The notes under the pieces were generated by a model. It was not told the origin of the DNA, did no database searches, and saw nothing but the letters and a program-made list of their open reading frames with translations. From positions 539,925 to 603,924 of the forward strand of contig OZ246397.1 of the NCBI GenBank assembly GCA_965230945.1: a stretch of DNA of 64,000 nt, given 5' to 3'. Source of the stretch: an uncultured Gammaproteobacteria bacterium. GTDB taxonomy: Bacteria; Patescibacteriota; Microgenomatia; PFEM01; JAPLYW01. The position numbers and the translations under genes were made by a program. Positions 10,618 through 20,708 of this stretch are shown here, piece by piece; the stretch's first letter is position 1, and the number at the start of each line of letters is the position of its first letter.

Positions 10618-11664
10618 ATGTTAAATAGACTTCATGATATTGACTCGGCAAAATACTTAAAATATTCTTTATTTCTTAGTCAAGTGGAAAAGGATCTCGT
10701 AGAAGAATTTTTAGAGTGGCTTCCGGATGAAATTGTTGACTGTCATACACACTGTGGTCTTTCAGAGCACGTAAAAGAGATTGATAATGAAATATATCAT
10801 CAAATGATAAGTACATTTCAAGGATTTAGTTTTGAGAATTCACACAGGGTTGAAAAGATTTTTTTTCGAAATAAAAATCTCAGATGTTTGAGATTTCCCT
10901 TCCCTTTTAGGGGAATAGATATAAAAGCGGCAAATGATTATCTGTTAAATAAGGTGAAAAGCCCTGACAAAGTGGCACTTTGCGGAATTCCCGAAGATAT
11001 AGAATATACAAATTCAATATTGAGAACAGGCAAATTTAGTGCTCTTAAAATGTATCATCAGCAGTTTAACTCACCCTCGAAACATATTTACGAATATTTC
11101 CCTCCAAAAATTCTGGAAGCTGCTGAAAAAGAAGGAGTTCCCATAATTCTGCATCTGCCAAGAATGATTACGCTGTGCAAAGACGAACTTTTTGATCTGA
11201 TCTATGATTTTCCCGGCTTAAAAATTTCTTTGGCCCATTTGGGACTACCACACCTAGTTGTACCTACTTTAGAGGAAACTTATAGAGAAGTTGCACAGTA
11301 TTCTAATATTAATATGGATACAGCTATGATTCCGTCAAAAGACGTTCTAACGATGGCATTAAGGGCTTTTGGTCCAAGAAGAATAATGTTCGGATCAGAT
11401 GAACCAATAAATCTTATAAGAGCTGTTGTTTACCAAAATCCAATATTGGGTCAAAGGTTGATTACTGAGTATAATTATCATTGGGTAAACAAAGAGGAGC
11501 ATGAGACATATAAACACCTTGCTAAAGGAGCTACCCACATGCATTGGTCTGCAGTTCAGGCAATAAAAGACGCGATAGAAAATCTATATCCCATAAAACA
11601 ACAATCTGAAGTAAAAAATGATATTTTTAACAATAATGCGGTTAAATTTTTTAATTTTGACTAG
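10618..11664 (+). CDS. Amidohydrolase-2 (TIM-barrel metal-dependent hydrolase/decarboxylase) family protein
   Basis: VDCHTHCG N-terminal metal motif, IILHLP, SLAHLGLP, MFGSDEP, C-terminal IFNNNAVKFFNF: the typical Amidohydro_2 pattern. Confidence 0.6.
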   Translation: MLNRLHDIDSAKYLKYSLFLSQVEKDLVEEFLEWLPDEIVDCHTHCGLSEHVKEIDNEIYHQMISTFQGFSFENSHRVEKIFFRNKNLRCLRFPFPFRGIDIKAANDYLLNKVKSPDKVALCGIPEDIEYTNSILRTGKFSALKMYHQQFNSPSKHIYEYFPPKILEAAEKEGVPIILHLPRMITLCKDELFDLIYDFPGLKISLAHLGLPHLVVPTLEETYREVAQYSNINMDTAMIPSKDVLTMALRAFGPRRIMFGSDEPINLIRAVVYQNPILGQRLITEYNYHWVNKEEHETYKHLAKGATHMHWSAVQAIKDAIENLYPIKQQSEVKNDIFNNNAVKFFNFD

Positions 11665-11717: not shown

Positions 11718-13097
11718 TTATTTTATTTTCTTAAGATTGAGGACCTTTAGAGATTTAGTGGATATTTTTGAAGGTGCTCCCATTAGTAAATCACGGCCTT
11801 CACCTGTTTTCGGAAAAGCAATTACCTCTCTGATATTTGTTTCGCCACATAGTACAGTAGCAAGACGATCGAAACCAAACGCTATTCCTCCATGTGGCGG
11901 TGGTGAAAATTTAAAGGCTTCGAGCATGTGTCCAAATCTGTTTTGCACTTCGCTCTCTGGTAAACCAAGAATCTCAAAAACTTTATGTTGTAAAACTCCA
12001 TCCGATATTCTTATGCTTCCTCCGGCAATTTCGTACCCATTCAAAACTAAATCGTAACCTAAGGCCTTTATTTTTAATAATTCTTTTTCGGGTTTGTTAA
12101 GATCCTCAACGCTTTTAATTTTCGGTTTAGTAAAAGGATGGTGTACAGCTGAAATTTTATTCTCTGTTGGGCCAATTTCAAACATTGGAGAATCTACTAC
12201 CCAACAAAAAGCCAACTCGTTGGGGTCATTGGGATTTTTTCGCGTATCAGGCTTGTCTGTATTGTATTTTTTCATAACGTAATCATAGGTATAAATTGGG
12301 AATTTACCAGCTGGAAGTTTTAAATAGGGGGTAACCTTTCTTATTACAGAAGAAACGGCTGTTTCAGCTAAATTCATAATGTCATCCTGTTCACAAAAAG
12401 ACATTTCAATATCGATCTGGGTAAATTCTGGTTGACGATCTTTTCGCAAATCTTCATCTCTGAAACACCTGGCTAGTTGGTAATATCGTTCTATTCCTGC
12501 TACCATCAAAAGTTGTTTAAATTGTTGAGGAGACTGAGGAAGAACGTATCCTTCGCCTGGATATAAACGGGATGGTACTATATACTCTCTAGCACCCTCG
12601 GGCGTTCCTTTTGTCAAAGCGGGCGTTTCAATTTCTATAAATCCATTTTCATCAAAGAAATTTCTAAAAGCGCTGGCCAGTTTGGCTCTCGTAATGATAT
12701 TTTTACGCATACGTTCAGTTCTTAAATCCAAATAACGGTACTTTAATCGCAATGACTCATCTACAGTTGAAGTGTTTTCATTTACATTAAAGGGAAGTGG
12801 AGCACATTTTGAGATAATCTTTATTGCTTCCGCTACTAATTCAATTTTTCCGAGTTCCTGCTCGGGGTTCACCGTTTGGGATGACCTTTTTTTAATGACC
12901 CCCTTTACCAAAATAAGATCCTCAAGCCCATAGTCCTGTACTAACAAATCTTTACCCAACACAACCTGGATACGTGCTGTCCGGTCGTATAAATCAATAA
13001 ATCCAACTTTAGAATGTTTTCTAAAACGGGAGATCCATCCTAGAGCTTTAACTTCTTTGCCAATATGAGTTTTCAGAGTTAAAATATCGATTTTCAT
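11718..13097 (-). CDS. aspS: Aspartyl-tRNA synthetase, bacterial type but lacking the GAD insertion domain (459 aa)
   Basis: OB-fold N-terminus, PQSPQQFKQLLM, FRDEDLRKDRQPEFTQIDIEMSF (motif 2), HHPFTKP, NGYEIAGGSIRI, PPHGGIAFGFDRL (motif 3). Only about 12 aa lie between KPDTR and FCWVVDSPMFE, where E. coli AspRS carries about 130 aa. Confidence 0.85.
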   Translation of the reverse strand: MKIDILTLKTHIGKEVKALGWISRFRKHSKVGFIDLYDRTARIQVVLGKDLLVQDYGLEDLILVKGVIKKRSSQTVNPEQELGKIELVAEAIKIISKCAPLPFNVNENTSTVDESLRLKYRYLDLRTERMRKNIITRAKLASAFRNFFDENGFIEIETPALTKGTPEGAREYIVPSRLYPGEGYVLPQSPQQFKQLLMVAGIERYYQLARCFRDEDLRKDRQPEFTQIDIEMSFCEQDDIMNLAETAVSSVIRKVTPYLKLPAGKFPIYTYDYVMKKYNTDKPDTRKNPNDPNELAFCWVVDSPMFEIGPTENKISAVHHPFTKPKIKSVEDLNKPEKELLKIKALGYDLVLNGYEIAGGSIRISDGVLQHKVFEILGLPESEVQNRFGHMLEAFKFSPPPHGGIAFGFDRLATVLCGETNIREVIAFPKTGEGRDLLMGAPSKISTKSLKVLNLKKIK

Positions 13098-13102
13098 AGG
13101 AT

Positions 13103-15094
13103 TTAAGGTATTATGTCATATTCTGACCTCGGAAACAAAAAGAGGTCGCTTAAACTTCTTAAGTTAAGTAGTTTAACTAGAAATCTGTCGATACTCAAAC
13201 AGAAACCTCCATGTGGCCTTGGATTTTGAAACGCGTTCAAATAGAATTGATATTTCTTGTGTTTTAATCCTGTTCCTTTTATGCCCTTCAGAAGTTTTTC
13301 GTAATCAGTTTCACGAATAGCCCCCGATGCTATTTCCCAACCTTTATAAATAACATCGAAGCTTAATGTTTTATCCTCCCTATCATGCTTTACATAAAAC
13401 TTTTTTACAGAGCTGGGATATTTTATTATTGCGAACAAATCAGTTTTGTACTTATCTTTGACAATCTTACCAAGCATTTCCTCAAGATCATATCCAAAAT
13501 CTATCCCGTAAGCGACTTTCCCACTTGTGCCTTTGCTATTTAGAAGGCTAAGGGCATCTTCGTAGGTAATTGTTTTTATGGTCTTATTAACTACTTGAGA
13601 TTTTGATATTTCCTTATTTTCATATAGTTTTTTTGTAATCACATTCAATAGAGTTCCCAATAAAGCAATCAGTTGATTTAAATTTTCAACATTAGCCATT
13701 TCTATATCTAAGCCATATGCTTCGGATAAATGCCTAGGAGTTGGGTTTAGTTCTGCTCTCCAAAAAGGACCTAGCTCAAAAAGTTTGTCTATGCCAGAAA
13801 GTATTAAGATCTGTTTATATAATTGGTTTGATTGCCTTAAAAGCATTTTTCTTCCGTACCAATTTACTGTAAAAATTTCCTCGTCTGGATTGTCTCGTAC
13901 GGGGTCAGTTGACACTGCAGTTATTGTGGGAGTATGAATTTCAACAAAACCGAGATATAAAAGTGTCTTTCGAGTAATAAAATAGGCATCACTTTTAAGT
14001 TTAATATTTGGGATTTTGGATTTATAAATTTCGCTATTGATACGAAAGTTTTCGCGTCTGGCATTTTCTTTTAAACTATAGATCATAGCATCCACAGCTT
14101 TTGTTACAGATGTTGAGATAATATCTTTTGCTATAGAGATACTATTTTGCCTTAATTTCTTATTGTATTGTGAATATTCATTTATTGATTTTAGATCATA
14201 AATTTCGTAAAGATTTTTGACTAAAAGAGTATTTTGCGGTGTCCCTAAATCGTATATGAGACAGTATTTGATAGTGCTCAAAAAATCTAGTTGTTCTTTT
14301 TTGAATACATTCGGTGTGGCGAAAAAGATGATGATAGGTTTTACTTTCAAGTTTTTGATGGTATTTAGTCGAACTGCCTTCTTGGCTATTTTATCCTTGA
14401 CTAGTTTTTTTGCTTTATTAATAGTTCTATTTGCTATAACTAGATTTTTATACCCTTTTTCGTTGAGGACTTTACATAACAAACTCCCTGTCGAGCCAGC
14501 ACCAACAATTAGAATGTATGCATCTTGGGGAATCGATCTTTTAATCATCATATCTACGGCTGTTCTTTCCGCAGAGACATTTCCTTTACCAATGTCTGTT
14601 GCATTTCTAACAGCATTTGAGACCTTTCTCGCATTGTTAAAGATTGTTTTTAAAACGATTCCGGCCGTTTTATCATCCGAGGCAATACTTATCGCTTGAC
14701 GTACTTGACCCGTAACCTGATTATCTCCTAAAGTTACACTTTTAAGTCCGCAGGCGGTTTCAAATAAATGCTCAATTACCTTTTTGCCAGAATATTGACA
14801 GATATCGGATATCTTGAAGGAGTTTGGTTTTTGAGATTGCTTCTTCCATAAATTCGTTATTCCGTCCTTATTATCTTCCGCAGCCACATAGTAGATTTCC
14901 ACACAATTGCATTTACTTAGAATTACGCATTCATCCAATCGATATTCATTCTGGAGTTCTTTCGCAAAAGACCGGTGATTTTTAATTAAGTAGGTTTGTA
15001 AAGATTGAAGGTCTCCTGTACCCATTAATGCAGAAAGACAGTGAATCTTTTCTAGTATGTTTTTTGTAATTTTATTTTGGAGCACTAGTGGCAA
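13103..15094 (-). CDS. Fusion protein: glutamyl-tRNA reductase (HemA)-like N-terminal catalytic and NADPH domains joined to an archaeal/eukaryal-type Asp/AsnRS class IIb catalytic core; no anticodon-binding domain
   Basis: GluTR-like motifs: LSKCNCVEIY, GLKSVTLGDNQVTGQVRQA, ARKVSNAVRNATDIG, ILIVGAGSTGSLLCKVLNEKGYKNLVIANRTINKAKKL. aaRS motifs from about aa 365: GFVEIHTPTI, LRQSNQLYKQ, FWRAELNPTPRHLSEAYGLDIEMA, GWEIASGAIRE, PRPHGGFCLSIDRF, FPRS. TTG start as in the ORF track; the stop is 5 nt before the aspS start. Confidence 0.75.
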   Translation of the reverse strand: MPLVLQNKITKNILEKIHCLSALMGTGDLQSLQTYLIKNHRSFAKELQNEYRLDECVILSKCNCVEIYYVAAEDNKDGITNLWKKQSQKPNSFKISDICQYSGKKVIEHLFETACGLKSVTLGDNQVTGQVRQAISIASDDKTAGIVLKTIFNNARKVSNAVRNATDIGKGNVSAERTAVDMMIKRSIPQDAYILIVGAGSTGSLLCKVLNEKGYKNLVIANRTINKAKKLVKDKIAKKAVRLNTIKNLKVKPIIIFFATPNVFKKEQLDFLSTIKYCLIYDLGTPQNTLLVKNLYEIYDLKSINEYSQYNKKLRQNSISIAKDIISTSVTKAVDAMIYSLKENARRENFRINSEIYKSKIPNIKLKSDAYFITRKTLLYLGFVEIHTPTITAVSTDPVRDNPDEEIFTVNWYGRKMLLRQSNQLYKQILILSGIDKLFELGPFWRAELNPTPRHLSEAYGLDIEMANVENLNQLIALLGTLLNVITKKLYENKEISKSQVVNKTIKTITYEDALSLLNSKGTSGKVAYGIDFGYDLEEMLGKIVKDKYKTDLFAIIKYPSSVKKFYVKHDREDKTLSFDVIYKGWEIASGAIRETDYEKLLKGIKGTGLKHKKYQFYLNAFQNPRPHGGFCLSIDRFLVKLLNLRSLSDLFLFPRSEYDIIP

Positions 15095-15295
15095 TATAGC
15101 AAAAAAACAGAGCTAAAACAATTCAGGCTTCTTGAGGAAGTTTTAGATTTTGTGTATTTTATAGTATTTTGGTAAAATTTCCCTTATGAGTAAAAAGAAA
15201 GCTTTGAAAGAACGACCCCTTACTTAAGGAATTCAGAAAATATTTTGTTTATGTAAATAATTTGAGAAATAAATTGGAATTTGTGAAGGATCGAC

Positions 15296-15345
15296 AAAAA
15301 AAGAGAGGGAGTAACCTTCGGACAAAACCTTAGGTGTGCCCTCTC
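15296..15345 (-). terminator. Intrinsic terminator/attenuator-like hairpin in the leader of the fusion operon
   Basis: On the minus strand GAGAGGG (complement of 15339-15345) pairs with CCCTCTC (complement of 15303-15309), with an inner ACCT/AGGT extension, followed by T7 (complement of 15296-15302). Confidence 0.45.
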
Positions 15346-15359
15346 ATCGTGATAATAAT

Positions 15360-15387
15360 ATCATACTCCTTTTTGAGAATTTGTCAA
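15360..15387 (-). promoter_or_regulatory. Sigma70-like promoter candidate firing towards the hairpin and the fusion gene
   Basis: Minus strand TTGACA (complement of 15382-15387), 16 nt spacer, TATGAT (complement of 15360-15365). Confidence 0.35.
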
Positions 15388-15476
15388 GGTTTTTTCCTAT
15401 TTGAGCGTTAGCGAAAACAAGGTTTCCTTATTTGACATTTATATCTTTGATGTTCTAAAAATAGGCTCATATCTTT

Positions 15477-15581
15477 AAGGTGCGGAGGTAGAATACCCAA
15501 GGTTTGAATAGCTTTCAACCTTTAAGGTTGAAATGTTGTAACATCCTGCAACCAGTTTGATCGAAAGGACTGTAGCACCTT
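15477..15581. ncRNA. Candidate structured RNA element (closed multi-stem junction); family and strand unknown
   Basis: Closing stem AAGGTGC (15477-15483) / GCACCTT (15575-15581). Inner hairpins: GGTA-gaa-TACC; a perfect 8-bp TTTCAACC (15513-15520) / GGTTGAAA (15526-15533); GTTG...CAAC; CAGT...ACTG. Confidence 0.25.
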
Positions 15582-15832
15582 CGAACAAGCAATTACATGA
15601 GGTAGGGAAGAAAGAGGCCTTAATACAATTTGTGATTGATAAAATCTATAAAAGAGCAAAAACTGAATTGATTACTTTAGAAACCTTCCGATCGCTTTTG
15701 ATTATGATTTCTATTGTTTGTGTTATAGCATATTTTGGAAGGAAAAACAAATTTTTAATCTAATTGCCTAACAGTTCTAAGTTGTGCTCCTTCGTAACTG
15801 GATGTTTCTGGGACATGTTTTTAGGTATCAAC

Positions 15833-16831
15833 TTAGGACACCTGGAAGGCATACCTGATGTTTTTCCAATCAGCCTGAATTCTAGTTCTATGAATTTTTT
15901 CTAATTTTGCTTGTTGTTTTTGGAGGTTTTTCTCTGCACCAATTGTTAGTTGCTTTTTGTGATTTGCTACTTCAACTAAAAAATATTTAAATAGCCCGAG
16001 CCATTGGTTAAACTTAATTTCTGTAGGGGTTGCTGATTGGCTAAAGTTTAAATCTTTGGCCAGCTTTTTAAATTGTTCTCTAGTAAAGATTTTTCTTAAA
16101 GCTTCTTTAAGTGTTGGTTGCCACTGGCTAAAGGTATAGGCGAGAAAGTCTTTATAGAGTTGACTATTTTTGGTATCCACCACTGACTCTTTTCTCTTTT
16201 GGAGCCGAAGTAAGACGGTATTGACGCCTGGGGGTGGTTGAAAATCTCCCCGTTTAAAATTATGGATAACTTTTGGTTCAAACCATGGTTTGATTAATAA
16301 AACAGACAAAGTTTCTTTACTAGTATAAGGGGAACCAGTAAATTTTTTGGCGGCTTCTTCCTGAACAATAAGATAGGTATCCTCAGGTGAATTTTCTGTA
16401 TTGACAAGTTTTTTTATTATGTCAGCCGTTATGTTGAACGGAATATTGGAAAAAACCTTATATTCTGTTTGGGGGAGTTTGTATTTTAGAAAATCTCCCT
16501 GATGAATTTTTATTTTAGGATTTTGGCCAAAACGATGTTTTAATTTTAAGAATAAGTCTTGGTCTTTTTCAATTGCGATTACTTTTTTACAGCGAAAGGC
16601 GAGTTGTTCGGTAATAATACCCCGACCTGGACCTACTTCATAGACTATATCTTTAGGGTCAATTGAAGATTTTTCCAAAAGATGTTGTACTAATTCAGGC
16701 TTCTTAAGGAAGTTTTGTGAATAAAGGATGCTTTTTCTTTCTGGATATTCTTTTTCAGACATACGCTTTTGCTTATGATATTTCATTGACTTAGGCATAA
16801 TGGCAGTTCCTAAGTATACCATTTTACTCAT
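15833..16831 (-). CDS. Erm-type 23S rRNA adenine-N6 methyltransferase homolog (RrnaAD family) with N- and C-terminal extensions
   Basis: SQNFL, SAM motif YEVGPGRGIIT, YKVFSNIPFNITADIIKKLV (compare ErmC [20 protein letters not shown]), TYLIVQEEAAKKF. The C-terminal domain resembles Erm rather than KsgA (YKDFLAYTFSQW...IFTREQFKKL...FNQWLGLFKYF). Confidence 0.75.
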   Translation of the reverse strand: MSKMVYLGTAIMPKSMKYHKQKRMSEKEYPERKSILYSQNFLKKPELVQHLLEKSSIDPKDIVYEVGPGRGIITEQLAFRCKKVIAIEKDQDLFLKLKHRFGQNPKIKIHQGDFLKYKLPQTEYKVFSNIPFNITADIIKKLVNTENSPEDTYLIVQEEAAKKFTGSPYTSKETLSVLLIKPWFEPKVIHNFKRGDFQPPPGVNTVLLRLQKRKESVVDTKNSQLYKDFLAYTFSQWQPTLKEALRKIFTREQFKKLAKDLNFSQSATPTEIKFNQWLGLFKYFLVEVANHKKQLTIGAEKNLQKQQAKLEKIHRTRIQADWKNIRYAFQVS

Positions 16832-18189: not shown

Positions 18190-18819
18190 ATGTCTAAAAA
18201 AATTAAAGTTTTTCTGTCCTTAATATCCTTAGTTTCTGTCGTTGCAACTGTGGGGATATTTTTTGATTTTGGTTTTAAAAAATTATTCTTAAAATCAAAA
18301 ATTTTTCCGTCCGAAAATAAAAAAACGGTTATTTCAAATATAACCCCAACCCCTTCTCCCGTCTTGGAATTTGTAGAATTACTTCATCTCCCTGAAGGTG
18401 CTTTAGATTTAACTTTACCTGTTGAAAGAAGTTATTTCGAAGCCATGAAAGAAAATACTCCAAAATATCCTGATGCTATTTCATTTAATCTTAATGAAAA
18501 TGAGGAAGTTAAAGCTATTTTTGATGGAAAAGTTGTGAGTGTTCAATATGTTGATAAGGAAACTATTGGGGATCAACCTAATGATTTTCTTACAATTTGG
18601 ATTGAAAGCAGAGATGAAATGCTAGTAGCTAGTTATCTTGTTGCAGGAGAATTTTTATTAAAAGAAAATGAGGAAATAAGATCCGGAGAAAGCTTAGCTA
18701 GAATTGGGAAAGGGATTGTTCCCTTTAGCAATGATGCTAATTTTAGTTTAACTATTATGAAATTGGAAGATGATGAATATAAAACAATAGCTTTAGATAA
18801 AGGAATGTTTTTACGATGA
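18190..18819 (+). CDS. Membrane-anchored hypothetical protein, possibly a degenerate LytM/M23-like barrel
   Basis: N-terminal TM helix. The C-terminal pattern VKAIFDGKVVSV...GESLARIG recalls M23 topology, but no HxxxD/HxH metal ligands are seen. Confidence 0.3.
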   Translation: MSKKIKVFLSLISLVSVVATVGIFFDFGFKKLFLKSKIFPSENKKTVISNITPTPSPVLEFVELLHLPEGALDLTLPVERSYFEAMKENTPKYPDAISFNLNENEEVKAIFDGKVVSVQYVDKETIGDQPNDFLTIWIESRDEMLVASYLVAGEFLLKENEEIRSGESLARIGKGIVPFSNDANFSLTIMKLEDDEYKTIALDKGMFLR

Positions 18820-20708
18820 GAAAAATGAAATTAATAAAAGTTAATTTTTTATTTAGGGTTTTATTAATAATTCTTTCTTTCTTTGCCTTCCTTTTTATCT
18901 TTAGGTCTTCAGCTTTAGCAGCTTTGTGGCCTTGCGTAGATTGCTACGATTGCAGCAGATGTGCTGCTTCATGTGGTAATGCTGGGACTGGGTCTTGGGT
19001 TTATGAGGGTTGTGGCAGGAATCGCTGCCCTCCAACTCAAACTTATCGATGGAGAAACATTCTTACCTGTTACTGTGGTAGATATCGTATTTGTAGAGTT
19101 GAAGATGGGTGTGTGAATAGTCCGAGCTGCGTGCCAGCTTGTTCTAATACATCTGACTGTGGTCATACATGTGCAGCTAATGGTTGTGATGCTTGTGCCT
19201 GTGATGGTGATTCTCGAAGTAGTTCCTATAACTGGACTTCTTTAGGTTGTTCAAGAGATTGTAGAACCTGTTATTGCGGTAGAATTAGATGTAGCTGTAC
19301 TGGATGGTCAAATAGATCCTGTGGAGGAGGAAGTTGTTCTTCTACCAAAATGCTCCAAACAAGGACGTGTACGCCTTCCGGTTGTAGCTCTACTTCAAGA
19401 TGTGTGAGTACTTCTGCTTGTCAGTGTAGCTGCTCTGGATGGTCAAATGGATCCTGTGGAGGAGGAAGTTGTTCATCATTGCAGAGACTTCAGACTCGTA
19501 CTTGTACGCCTTCTGGCTGTAGTTCTACTTCTAGGTGTGTTGGCGACTCTAGTTGTTGTCAGTGTACTAGTTGGGTAAATGGTGCTTGTGGTCCAGATGG
19601 GAGTTGTGCGGTAGGACAACGCAGGCAGACAAGAACTTGTAGCCCTTCTGGTTGCAGTTCTACTTCTCGGTGTGTGATTGATGCTAGTTGTAATGCGTCA
19701 TGCACTATTAATTTATCCCCCATATCTCTGACTTTAAGTACAGGAAGATCTGATCTAATCACTGCTGAGGTAAGTGTGGAGAATGCAACCGTGGATAGAG
19801 TAGATTTTTCCTCTAATAATCCTAGTGTAGCTTCCGTTGATCCTTCTAGTGACTCAGGTTCTCCTTATCGTACTCAAGCAACAGGTGTAGATGTTGGAGA
19901 AGCGGAGGTAAGTGCTCAGGCTATTTTGAATCCCTCTGGCTCATGTAATACGAGTACACCTACCAGTATAACGGTAGAATTCGGTGGCTGGTTCCAAACC
20001 CAAGGTGGTACCATTCATGCAGAAGGTAATCTGTCTAATAAAATTCCTTCCACAGCCAGCGATAGGAACTTATCTATGGCTGTAGGTGGTTTTCCAGGAG
20101 TTATCTCTCATCAATCAGCAATAGAGGCTAATTTTGGTGAAGGTTATCCTTCCAATGATGATCCTAATCATTGGCTAGCCAAATCTTCCTACCAAGGCAA
20201 GAACTTTGGTTCTTGGGGGTTCTTTGTTAAGAAATACAGTACCAGGATGACAGAGAACTTTGATGGCACCCTTCCAAACAAAGACGGTATTTATTATTCC
20301 GGATCAGGCAAAACACTACAGGGAAACTGGAAATTGCCTGCTAACCGCTGGTTGATAATTATGGTTGAAGGCAATATTAACATTCCTGTAGACATTACTG
20401 TTCCAGACACCAGTTTTTTAGCTTTGGTAAGCGCCAATGATATTATCTTTGAAAGCTCTGTTTCCCAAGCCCAAGGCATGTTTATAGCTGATGGAAGTAT
20501 AGACACCAATACCGGTTCAACCCAGTTTCAAGCTGAAGGCTTCTTTGCTGCTTCCCAGTTTATCCTAAGCAGGGACCTAGAAGATAACAACCCAACCACA
20601 CCTGCAGAATTATTTACTTTCAGACCAGACTTTCTTATCAATTCCTATAAAGATGCTGATAATAATCTTTGGTGGTTTGATTTTAAATGGGAGGAAATAG
20701 CCCCATAA
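18816..20708 (+). CDS. Secreted Cys-rich protein with TSP1-like (WSxxSCGGGSC...QTRTC) repeats, a Big_2-like Ig domain and an uncharacterised C-terminal domain
   Basis: Signal peptide (ends SSALA); about 70 Cys in the first 300 aa; three clear repeats of roughly 43 aa; Big_2-like ITAEVSVENATVDRVDFSSNNPSVASVDP. Confidence 0.6.
   Translation: MRKMKLIKVNFLFRVLLIILSFFAFLFIFRSSALAALWPCVDCYDCSRCAASCGNAGTGSWVYEGCGRNRCPPTQTYRWRNILTCYCGRYRICRVEDGCVNSPSCVPACSNTSDCGHTCAANGCDACACDGDSRSSSYNWTSLGCSRDCRTCYCGRIRCSCTGWSNRSCGGGSCSSTKMLQTRTCTPSGCSSTSRCVSTSACQCSCSGWSNGSCGGGSCSSLQRLQTRTCTPSGCSSTSRCVGDSSCCQCTSWVNGACGPDGSCAVGQRRQTRTCSPSGCSSTSRCVIDASCNASCTINLSPISLTLSTGRSDLITAEVSVENATVDRVDFSSNNPSVASVDPSSDSGSPYRTQATGVDVGEAEVSAQAILNPSGSCNTSTPTSITVEFGGWFQTQGGTIHAEGNLSNKIPSTASDRNLSMAVGGFPGVISHQSAIEANFGEGYPSNDDPNHWLAKSSYQGKNFGSWGFFVKKYSTRMTENFDGTLPNKDGIYYSGSGKTLQGNWKLPANRWLIIMVEGNINIPVDITVPDTSFLALVSANDIIFESSVSQAQGMFIADGSIDTNTGSTQFQAEGFFAASQFILSRDLEDNNPTTPAELFTFRPDFLINSYKDADNNLWWFDFKWEEIAP
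19290..19694 (+). repeat. In-frame tandem coding repeats (3 copies of roughly 130 nt) inside the Cys-rich protein gene
   Basis: CSCTGWSNRSCGGGSCSSTKMLQTRTCTPSGCSSTSRCV / CSCSGWSNGSCGGGSCSSLQRLQTRTCTPSGCSSTSRCV / CQCTSWVNGACGPDGSCAVGQRRQTRTCSPSGCSSTSRCV. Confidence 0.7.

Follow-up and report, generated by a model that had tools for sequence, protein, structure and literature searches.

What reaction would be catalysed by an enzyme in which a glutamyl-tRNA reductase (GluTR) runs directly into the catalytic core of an aspartyl-tRNA synthetase (AspRS)? This question is raised by an open reading frame (ORF) at 13103..15094 on the minus strand of a 64-kb stretch of contig OZ246397.1 (hereafter the window, i.e., the whole 64,000 nucleotides that were analysed), which encodes 663 aa from a TTG codon. 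The initial annotation had described this ORF as two unrelated enzyme modules on one minus-strand frame, and Pfam, NCBIfam and structure prediction with AlphaFold2 (AF2) and Foldseek all agree with that description. The fusion consists of known parts in a new architecture and, judging from its sequence, is predicted to carry out a new reaction. Our favoured interpretation, held tentatively and at somewhat less than even confidence, is a bifunctional charge-then-reduce enzyme, in which the core would activate aspartate and place it as an ester on tRNA, and Cys62 and NADPH of the other half would then reduce it to an aspartate aldehyde.

The domain order is clear from Pfam, which found the expected GlutR_N, Shikimate_DH and tRNA-synt_2 matches. 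Reading along the minus strand, these are a GluTR-type catalytic domain (residues 40-166, 14597..14977, E 1.5e-26), an NADPH-binding Rossmann domain with GAGSTG and ANRT motifs (residues 190-302, 14189..14527, E 2e-13) and an archaeal/eukaryal-type AspRS-like class IIb aminoacyl-tRNA synthetase (aaRS) core (residues 363-657, 13124..14008, E 1.4e-53). Neither GlutR_dimer (PF00745) nor the OB-fold tRNA_anti-codon domain was matched in the ORF at E<=1, and the earlier proposal that the GluTR dimerisation domain had been replaced by an Asp-type core without an anticodon-binding domain (ABD) is thus upheld. PF00745 is also absent from the precomputed domains of every fusion, whereas canonical GluTR matches do carry it.

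Structure prediction recovers both folds. The AF2 model (mean pLDDT 85.9, pTM 0.62) was matched by Foldseek to AspRS 3NEL (E 1e-23) and to GluTR 1GPJ (E 3e-20, 378 columns against a 399-residue chain). Long helices (301-350) enter the aaRS core, and confidence is good over most of the junction between the two modules. The model and Foldseek together delimit a long helical connector (residues 301-362, 14009..14194, minus strand), which on the model is the predicted counterpart of the GluTR ‘spinal’ helix, running into the aaRS core in place of the GluTR dimerisation domain.

The start of the protein is probably slightly downstream of the TTG. An in-frame GTG at 15085 (660 aa) is likelier than the TTG at 15094 because the TTG overlaps the -10 box of a conserved promoter-like element (TTG...TGcTATATT, 15093..15120, minus strand), which is kept in related loci. 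The 660-aa length is also seen in the JGI-called member P0185. NCBI places the start at an ATG at 15025 (640 aa), which would drop the conserved first strand ‘IHCLSAL’.

Could the join be a chimeric assembly, a frameshift join or a decaying pseudogene? Two relatives are indeed damaged (L012 by a frameshift in the core, L032 by insertion-sequence truncation), but the other evidence rules this explanation out, and we consider its probability negligible. In the independent Logan assembly of run SRR3095933, 3,988 bp that cover the whole ORF (12396-16383) match the window at 100% identity, and 37 full-length fusions were collected on independent contigs, including contigs of 91-778 kb. G+C is flat along the gene (0.30-0.39), and AF2 is confident over most of the junction. 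Compared with three relatives, dN is 0.14-0.47 with synonymous sites saturated, alike in the catalytic domain, Rossmann domain, connector and core; every region of the fusion is under purifying selection. A natural two-gene form, described below, likewise speaks against an artefact.

The fusion is not confined to this genome. A word-indexed search returned 19 fusion proteins, down to 32% identity, and an exhaustive profile search of 1.84 billion representatives gave about 25 clusters (50% identity level) of full-length fusions. Homologues (23-78% identical per half) are found in Patescibacteria, the candidate phyla radiation (CPR). Among species-representative genomes, the fusion occurs in 10 metagenome-assembled genomes, nearly all labelled Patescibacteria, including Candidatus Falkowbacteria GW2011_GWF2_43_32. 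One fusion-bearing contig of 3.3 kb, listed under Lutibacter, has probably been mis-binned.

Two proteins that were considered as variants of the fusion proved to be damaged copies of it. P0039 of L032, taken for a free C-terminal half, is a fusion that the end of an IS30-like transposase gene cuts short (L032 1-1215), and L012, taken for a two-gene version, has a 1-nt frameshift inside the aaRS core (L012 4804-6752). Both damaged copies still precede AspRS.

The N-terminal half belongs to the GluTR family but departs from it where the substrate is bound. It aligns to positions 27-328 of 416 of the NCBIfam hemA model TIGR01035 with 162.2 bits, under the equivalog cut-off of 209.55, and scores 136.8 on NF000744, under the cut-off of 429. 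The initial annotation had this half following GluTR motif by motif. That holds for Cys62 and the NADPH motifs, which align on profile search, but not for the residues around the nucleophile, where the Arg of STCNR is Cys64 and the Thr is Lys61. Cys62 (codon 14909-14911, minus strand, within the K61-C62-N63-C64 signature at 14903-14914) aligns with the catalytic Cys of Arabidopsis 4N7R and with the C48S position of M. kandleri 1GPJ.

These departures are family traits, as drawn from 37 fusions and 3 split forms compared with 15 canonical GluTRs. Cys62 is invariant (40/40), and Ser119, Gln126, Gln130, GxGxxG and NRT are retained. However, S-T-C-N-R has become x-K-C-N-[C/A/S/G], with the Arg position occupied by C, A, S or G in 40/40 members and by Arg in 15/15 canonical GluTRs. 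GLDS has become GL[K/H/R]S (a basic residue for Asp), and Arg177 is newly invariant. The lost Arg is presumably the residue that forms a salt bridge to the substrate gamma-carboxylate in M. kandleri GluTR; in the structure of that enzyme by Moser et al. (2001), the motif Arg reportedly binds this carboxylate. Because the Glu-binding Arg was lost while a Lys, a basic residue and Arg177 were gained, the pocket appears to be re-tooled rather than degraded: it would still be basic but shaped differently, which is what a shorter and still acidic side chain would call for. The substrate of the fusion is most likely not glutamate. Because Cys62 and the NADPH motifs are conserved, the reductase half should still form and reduce a thioester.

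Compared as a whole with GluTR (M. kandleri 1GPJ, A. thaliana 4N7R), the fusion shares the nucleophilic Cys in a C-N motif, the Rossmann GxGxxG/NRT motifs and the spinal helix. It differs in having an aaRS core for the dimerisation domain, altered STCNR and GLDS motifs, Arg177, a score below cut-off and no tetrapyrrole context. The annotators had seen no tetrapyrrole genes in the window, and we likewise found no hemL or other tetrapyrrole gene there (24 ORFs scanned with Pfam, the rest inspected) or in about 20 related loci. In GluTR, the Cys attacks the ester of an aminoacyl-tRNA and NADPH reduces the resulting thioester to an aldehyde, and by analogy the same chemistry, from activated acyl group or ester via Cys thioester to aldehyde, would be expected of the fusion (PMC7242693).

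The C-terminal half is an AspRS-like catalytic domain. It aligns to positions 137-438 of 438 of the NCBIfam aspartate--tRNA(Asn) ligase model NF003483 with 237.4 bits (equivalog cut-off 353), and to the whole catalytic domain of T. kodakarensis AspRS 3NEL (residues 137-434 of 438) with 167 bits; identity with 3NEL/1B8A is 31-32%. Scores against the asparagine synthetase A (AS-A) models are lower: 101.9 bits for NF005052 (cut-off 368) and 98.2 for NF005054 (cut-off 309). Motif 2 is PFWRAELNPTPRHLSEAYGLDIEM (13697..13768, minus strand, with R446, R454-H455, D463 and E465) and motif 3 is RPHGGFCLSIDRFL (13178..13219, minus strand, with R637); both lie where the initial annotation had put them, as does KCNC. 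The main clade of the family retains R446, E448, R454-H455, D463, E465, D580, E587 and R637, so on alignment the motif-2/3 arginines are invariant there and the core does not look like an inactive scaffold. Also retained in the main clade are K427 (in QSNQLYKQ) and R592, which in AspRS bind the aspartate side chain. Because the ATP/Mg ligands and these two residues are conserved, the core should still make Asp-AMP, if sequence is a guide.

The core has nevertheless diverged from its nearest relatives, the archaeal/eukaryal non-discriminating AspRSs (ND-AspRSs; 3NEL/1B8A). It shares with them the whole class IIb domain, motifs 1-3, the ATP/Mg ligands and the Asp-binding K and R, but it has no OB-fold domain or hinge, carries a flipping-loop insertion and falls in a clade of its own with standalone cores. 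The flipping loop, VSTDPVRDNPDEEIF in the window (13871..13915, minus strand), is remodelled from the canonical xTE-----GGxxLF to TDP[V/P][R/K] plus 4-5 residues, with D397-P398 invariant and a 5-residue insertion in the window's fusion. Other signature changes are QSPQ to QSNQ, FRAE to WRAE and, in motif 3, GFGLG to GFCLG.

The gene neighbours of the fusion provide evidence on its product. In the window, the fusion is followed on the same strand by a complete bacterial-type AspRS without the GAD insertion (11718..13097, 459 aa with OB fold and core; NF001750 585 bits, cut-off 443). Its ATG lies 5 nt after the fusion stop, which agrees with the spacing given in the initial annotation and with translational coupling. 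Convergent to the two genes is an Amidohydro_2 metal-dependent TIM-barrel protein (10618..11664, plus strand, 348 aa), a conserved neighbour of the fusion.

We compared these neighbourhoods across about 25 deduplicated loci. Close relatives (60-78% identity) have the fusion, then AspRS, with a convergent short-chain dehydrogenase/reductase (SDR) and Amidohydro_2. More distant loci reshuffle the same genes: fusion with convergent SDR and AspRS (L049); AspRS, SDR and fusion, then Amidohydro_2 (L005) or LD-carboxypeptidase (L051); fusion and SDR (L050, 23-31% identity per half); AsnRS-like, archaeal-type AspRS, iron-type alcohol dehydrogenase (Fe-ADH), fusion and a TatD/Amidohydro-like gene (L002); Fe-ADH, fusion and AspRS (L039); and Amidohydro_2, fusion, AspRS and archaeal-type AspRS (L044). 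AspRS lies at most two genes from the fusion in 12 deduplicated loci, and an aldehyde reductase adjoins the fusion in at least 10 independent contexts. There is also a split form, a one-strand operon of a GluTR-like protein (360 aa, with the family signature KCNC), an ABD-less class II core (332 aa, after a 1-nt gap), a metallo-beta-lactamase (MBL) and an SDR.

The aldehyde reductases come from two non-homologous families, SDR and Fe-ADH. The partner SDR scores 181-184 bits against sulfoacetaldehyde reductase 6IXJ and E. coli YdfG 3ASU, both NADPH-dependent reductases of small acidic aldehydes, and the Fe-ADH partner also matches small-aldehyde reductases. The strongest indirect evidence that the fusion product is an aldehyde is that two unrelated aldehyde reductases fill the same operon slot. 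Among SDRs of the YdfG/YMR226C type are serine 3-dehydrogenases, enzymes that convert an alpha-amino aldehyde to its alcohol and back, so this kinship fits a 1-semialdehyde better than a 4-semialdehyde.

Taken together, the proposed charge-then-reduce cycle would run as follows. The AspRS-derived core would use ATP to convert L-aspartate to aspartyl-adenylate and would then load the aspartyl group as an ester on a tRNA's 3' end, with tRNA-Asp the likeliest carrier. Because there is no ABD, the tRNA would be gripped by its acceptor arm, with no reading of the anticodon. The aminoacylated CCA end would swing over to the GluTR-derived domain, where Cys62 would attack the ester, releasing the tRNA and forming an aspartyl thioester that NADPH would reduce to aspartate-1-semialdehyde (3-amino-4-oxobutanoate). 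The class II core would also provide the dimer interface formerly given by the lost GluTR dimerisation domain. In most lineages, the neighbouring YdfG/IsfD-type SDR or Fe-ADH would reduce the reactive amino aldehyde further to the amino alcohol acid 3-amino-4-hydroxybutanoate.

The architecture, the retention of both sets of catalytic residues, the changed pocket and the gene partners are shown by the analysis; aspartate as the substrate, tRNA as the carrier, and the identity and cellular use of the products are what we infer. A tRNA carrier is favoured because of the long helical connector and the tight coupling to AspRS operons, and the proposal as a whole fits because of the adjacent aldehyde reductases, the split operon with the same partners and the pocket without the Glu-binding Arg. 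The nearest known precedent, ErdS, joins an AspRS to a domain that consumes Asp-tRNA, and cryo-EM shows its entrapped tRNA to act as a ‘prosthetic swinging arm’ (PMC13219428, PMC7334510). If the proposal is right, the family could be a second natural aminoacyl-tRNA reductase system, with cis-charged Asp-tRNA as swinging-arm cofactor and, together with SDR or Fe-ADH, a four-electron reduction of the alpha-carboxyl to an amino alcohol outside tetrapyrrole synthesis; we hold this wider claim slightly less firmly than the mechanism itself.

Several observations weigh against charge-then-reduce. The core lacks the OB-fold ABD (the AspRS alignment begins only at AspRS residue 137), and characterised class II paralogues without a tRNA-binding domain, such as AS-A and the ligases that load amino acids onto carrier proteins (aa:CP ligases), no longer charge tRNA (PMC9437257). 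The flipping loop, which in AspRS closes over the amino acid and A76, is not only remodelled but modelled by AF2 at low confidence, and the most divergent members (P0068, P0070, P0073, P0076, P0080 and P0183) have degenerate aaRS motifs. A subfamily at 32% identity (L007-L011, L013) has a convergent MBL-fold hydrolase instead of the usual partners, with neither AspRS nor SDR nearby, and has lost Glu66; this MBL weakly resembles RNase Z and PhnP. The window's own locus keeps the gene order of its close relatives but has no SDR/ADH gene. The proposal also does not explain the conserved Amidohydro_2 partner, to which no reaction could be assigned from the remote Foldseek neighbours of its model: by sequence, its best matches in the PDB reach only E 0.0045-0.016, and for its AF2 model (pLDDT 95.6) there is nothing nearer than remote neighbours of the Amidohydrolase_2 group at TM about 0.5, namely decarboxylases, lactonases and LigY. 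Finally, we know of no metabolic use for aspartate-1-semialdehyde or 3-amino-4-hydroxybutanoate in these organisms.

The main competitor is tRNA-independent carboxylate reduction, with which the missing ABD agrees; we regard it as a serious rival, though less likely than not. Here, Cys62 (in cis or across the dimer) would attack the aspartyl-adenylate directly and NADPH would reduce the thioester, a logic that aa:CP ligases share with E1 enzymes and with carboxylic acid reductases, here minus the carrier. Other ABD-less class II cores do transfer to a small nucleophile or thiol, AS-A to ammonia and aa:CP ligases to phosphopantetheine (PMC9437257). The remodelled flipping loop and the GFGLG to GFCLG change could let a protein nucleophile into the site, the halves can act as separate polypeptides (as the split form shows), and the MBL subfamily manages without a nearby AspRS. 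However, GluTR chemistry is known solely on a tRNA ester (PMC7242693), and the geometry is unfavourable: the model has 50-75 helix residues between the modules, so contact would need a large movement, and in GluTR the catalytic domain sits far along the helix from the dimerisation module, whose place the core takes here. Direct attack on the adenylate would also leave the coupling to AspRS in 12 loci unexplained. That coupling, in many lineages to a complete AspRS by translation, is the starting point of a different account, in which the fusion reduces Asp-tRNA supplied by its neighbour and its own core serves only as a dimer module and acceptor-end dock, with no adenylation. Class II cores are obligate dimer modules, this one occupies exactly the position of the GluTR dimerisation domain, and the aaRS catalytic residues are gone from some divergent members. 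A scaffold, though, would have no use for R446, R454-H455, E448, D580, E587 and R637, which are (near-)invariant in the main clade, and there are subfamilies and a split operon without a nearby AspRS, so we consider this unlikely.

Equally improbable, in our view, is an AsnA-like activation of the beta-carboxyl, which would give aspartate-4-semialdehyde in place of aspartokinase and aspartate-semialdehyde dehydrogenase, with SDR/ADH then making homoserine. AS-A and AS-AR are ABD-less AspRS/AsnRS-like cores that activate the Asp side-chain carboxylate (PMC9437257), the C-terminal half has 98-102 bits to the AS-A models, and the products would have obvious uses (diaminopimelate and Lys for the cell wall, Thr, Met); the LD-carboxypeptidase gene 3' of the fusion in L051 would also suit such a role. 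Yet the core is nearer AspRS (237 bits) than AS-A (102 bits, cut-off 368) and sister to canonical archaeal-type AspRS in the tree, and the retained K427 and R592 would hold the side-chain carboxylate away from ATP. The SDR partner is of the YdfG/IsfD type rather than a homoserine dehydrogenase, and dapA, dapB, thrB and thrC occur in none of the neighbourhoods. Still less credible is an ordinary HemA for tetrapyrroles with a decorative or regulatory aaRS-like domain, to which we give only a very small chance. The N-terminal half is unmistakably GluTR-related with its Cys and NADPH site kept, and in L008 (9634-9706) and L010 (9538-9610) the fusion has a tRNA-Glu gene about 230 nt upstream, with anticodon CTC in one locus and TTC in the other. 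This tRNA was rejected as a functional partner: it is followed by its own terminator hairpin, the two cases are a single inherited arrangement (the intergenic regions are homologous) and other loci lack it. An ordinary HemA is further contradicted by the replaced TCNR Arg (40/40 against 15/15), the score of 162 against a cut-off of 209.55, the absence of a dimerisation domain and the lack of hemL or any other tetrapyrrole gene in the window and about 20 loci.

How does the charge-then-reduce proposal compare with known systems? Its closest known working principle is that of ErdS, the fungal AspRS-DUF2156 ergosteryl-aspartate synthase, where the CCA end of the bound tRNA swings between two sites (PMC13219428, PMC7334510). 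ErdS and LysX (LysRS-MprF) are, like the fusion, an aaRS joined to an enzyme of an aminoacyl-tRNA-consuming family, but they keep the ABD and their partner is an aminoacyl transferase, whereas the fusion has no ABD and a reductase partner; the partner domains are not homologous. AS-A and AS-AR have a similar ABD-less architecture, but the fusion core scores below the AS-A cut-offs and groups with AspRS rather than with AsnRS-like proteins. The aa:CP ligases pair a SerRS-like class IIa core with a carrier protein, while the fusion core is class IIb and Asp-type, and no carrier-protein gene was found in any neighbourhood examined. Unlike the fusion, neither AS-A nor aa:CP ligases are fused to a reductase. 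Carboxylic acid reductases and the R domains of non-ribosomal peptide synthetases share the logic of ATP activation, thioester formation and NADPH reduction to an aldehyde, often with a separate reductase to the alcohol, but they do so with an ANL adenylation domain, a phosphopantetheinyl carrier and an SDR-type R domain, none of them homologous to the fusion.

A 2022 review lists AS-A/AS-AR and ErdS as the only AspRS paralogues (PMC9437257). Full-text literature searches found no description of a GluTR-aaRS fusion, in line with the initial annotation. To our knowledge, GluTR is the sole aminoacyl-tRNA reductase to have been characterised, and no role is known for it beyond catalysing the first step of the C5 tetrapyrrole pathway.

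Where did the core come from? In a neighbour-joining tree (without support values), fusion cores and standalone ABD-less cores form one clade, which is sister to canonical archaeal/eukaryal-type AspRS, CPR's own copies included. The standalone cores in this clade are P0059, P0064, P0065, P0067, P0074, P0104 and a 324-aa protein in L005, a locus that holds both a fusion and a standalone core. Standalone cores of 319-329 aa with the fusion-type flipping loop lie at L043 7908-8897, L053 6001-6960 and L005 4530-5504. Those of L043 and L053 sit between a seven-transmembrane histidine kinase and a small AAA_18 P-loop protein, beside LeuRS, with no GluTR-like gene nearby; a 368-aa ‘Shikimate_DH’ protein near the L053 core was considered and is not GluTR-like. 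Other candidates were set aside as well: the long proteins with a similar core (P0066, P0102, P0119, P0139, P0140, P0152) are ordinary AspRSs with extensions, and P0181, considered as an ABD-less precedent, is ErdS-like with a canonical flipping loop. A separate observation from the same database matches, outside the window, is P0144 (949 aa), in which GatB (GatB_N and GatB_Yqey) is joined to a complete archaeal-type AspRS as a transamidosome-like fusion.

The operon around the fusion appears to be the older unit. At L056 4665-7026, L058 3336-7083 and L060 3259-7023 (also in L055 and L054), an operon without the fusion combines a divergent AsnRS-like gene, which reaches about 300 bits and stays below cut-off, with an archaeal-type ND-AspRS and Amidohydro_2. 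Because this operon exists in genomes that lack the fusion, the fusion, with or without its reductase, looks like a cassette inserted into a pre-existing CPR Asx-tRNA operon. The Amidohydro_2 partner family comprises at least 185 clusters, is CPR-wide and is far larger than the fusion family; the hydrolase may be tied to AspRS and tRNA rather than to the aldehyde. Among other genes seen in these loci, an APH-family kinase and a radical SAM/SPASM gene come after the AspRS of L032, and L054 has a resembling set (APH, aminotransferase, radical SAM-SPASM) near Amidohydro_2.

The window contains further features of note. Upstream of the fusion, in an unusually long intergenic region of 740 bp, lies an element (15295-15387, minus strand) made up of a near-consensus sigma-70 promoter (TTGACA-16-TATGAT) and, within about 10 nt after it, a hairpin (GAGAGGG...CCCUCUC followed by U7; -20.5 kcal/mol, z = -2.7). 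Rfam has no match for this pair, and L003, L033 and L035 do not conserve it; it might be a remnant or a small RNA. The upstream region as a whole (15050-15850) gave no Rfam match at E<=1, and the idea of a leader or riboswitch was dropped.

A second tight cluster of aaRS paralogues lies at 25344-31057 (plus strand). It starts with ProRS (482 aa) and a 256-aa class IIa core-only protein and continues with a divergent 475-aa ProRS-like paralogue, an LD-carboxypeptidase (Peptidase_S66) and a 377-aa class IIb core that has no OB anticodon domain and groups with CPR AsnRS-like proteins. Outside the window, LD-carboxypeptidase genes occur 3' of the L051 fusion and, in L058 and L060, close to the AsnRS-like/AspRS/Amidohydro_2 operon. 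Back in the window, 18816-20708 (plus strand) encodes a protein of 630 aa that looks secreted and has many tandem repeats rich in Cys (‘...CSGWSN.SCGGGSCSS...QTRTCTPSGCSSTSRCV...’).

Public annotation of the fusion family is at present uninformative or misleading, with members named ‘hypothetical protein’ (NCBI) or ‘aspartyl-tRNA synthetase’ (JGI), and our analysis also flags the conserved AsnRS-like/AspRS/Amidohydro_2 operon in CPR. The charge-then-reduce hypothesis is directly testable with one recombinant protein. If true, it would extend tRNA- and aaRS-dependent metabolism to the synthesis of amino aldehydes and amino alcohols, and AspRS paralogues, with AS-A and ErdS as the other two, would gain a third functional type in the fusion. 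Should tRNA not take part, the fusion would instead represent a new, compact way of building a carboxylate reductase. For Patescibacteria, whose metabolism is regarded as minimal, the family suggests a small-molecule pathway that has gone unrecognised.

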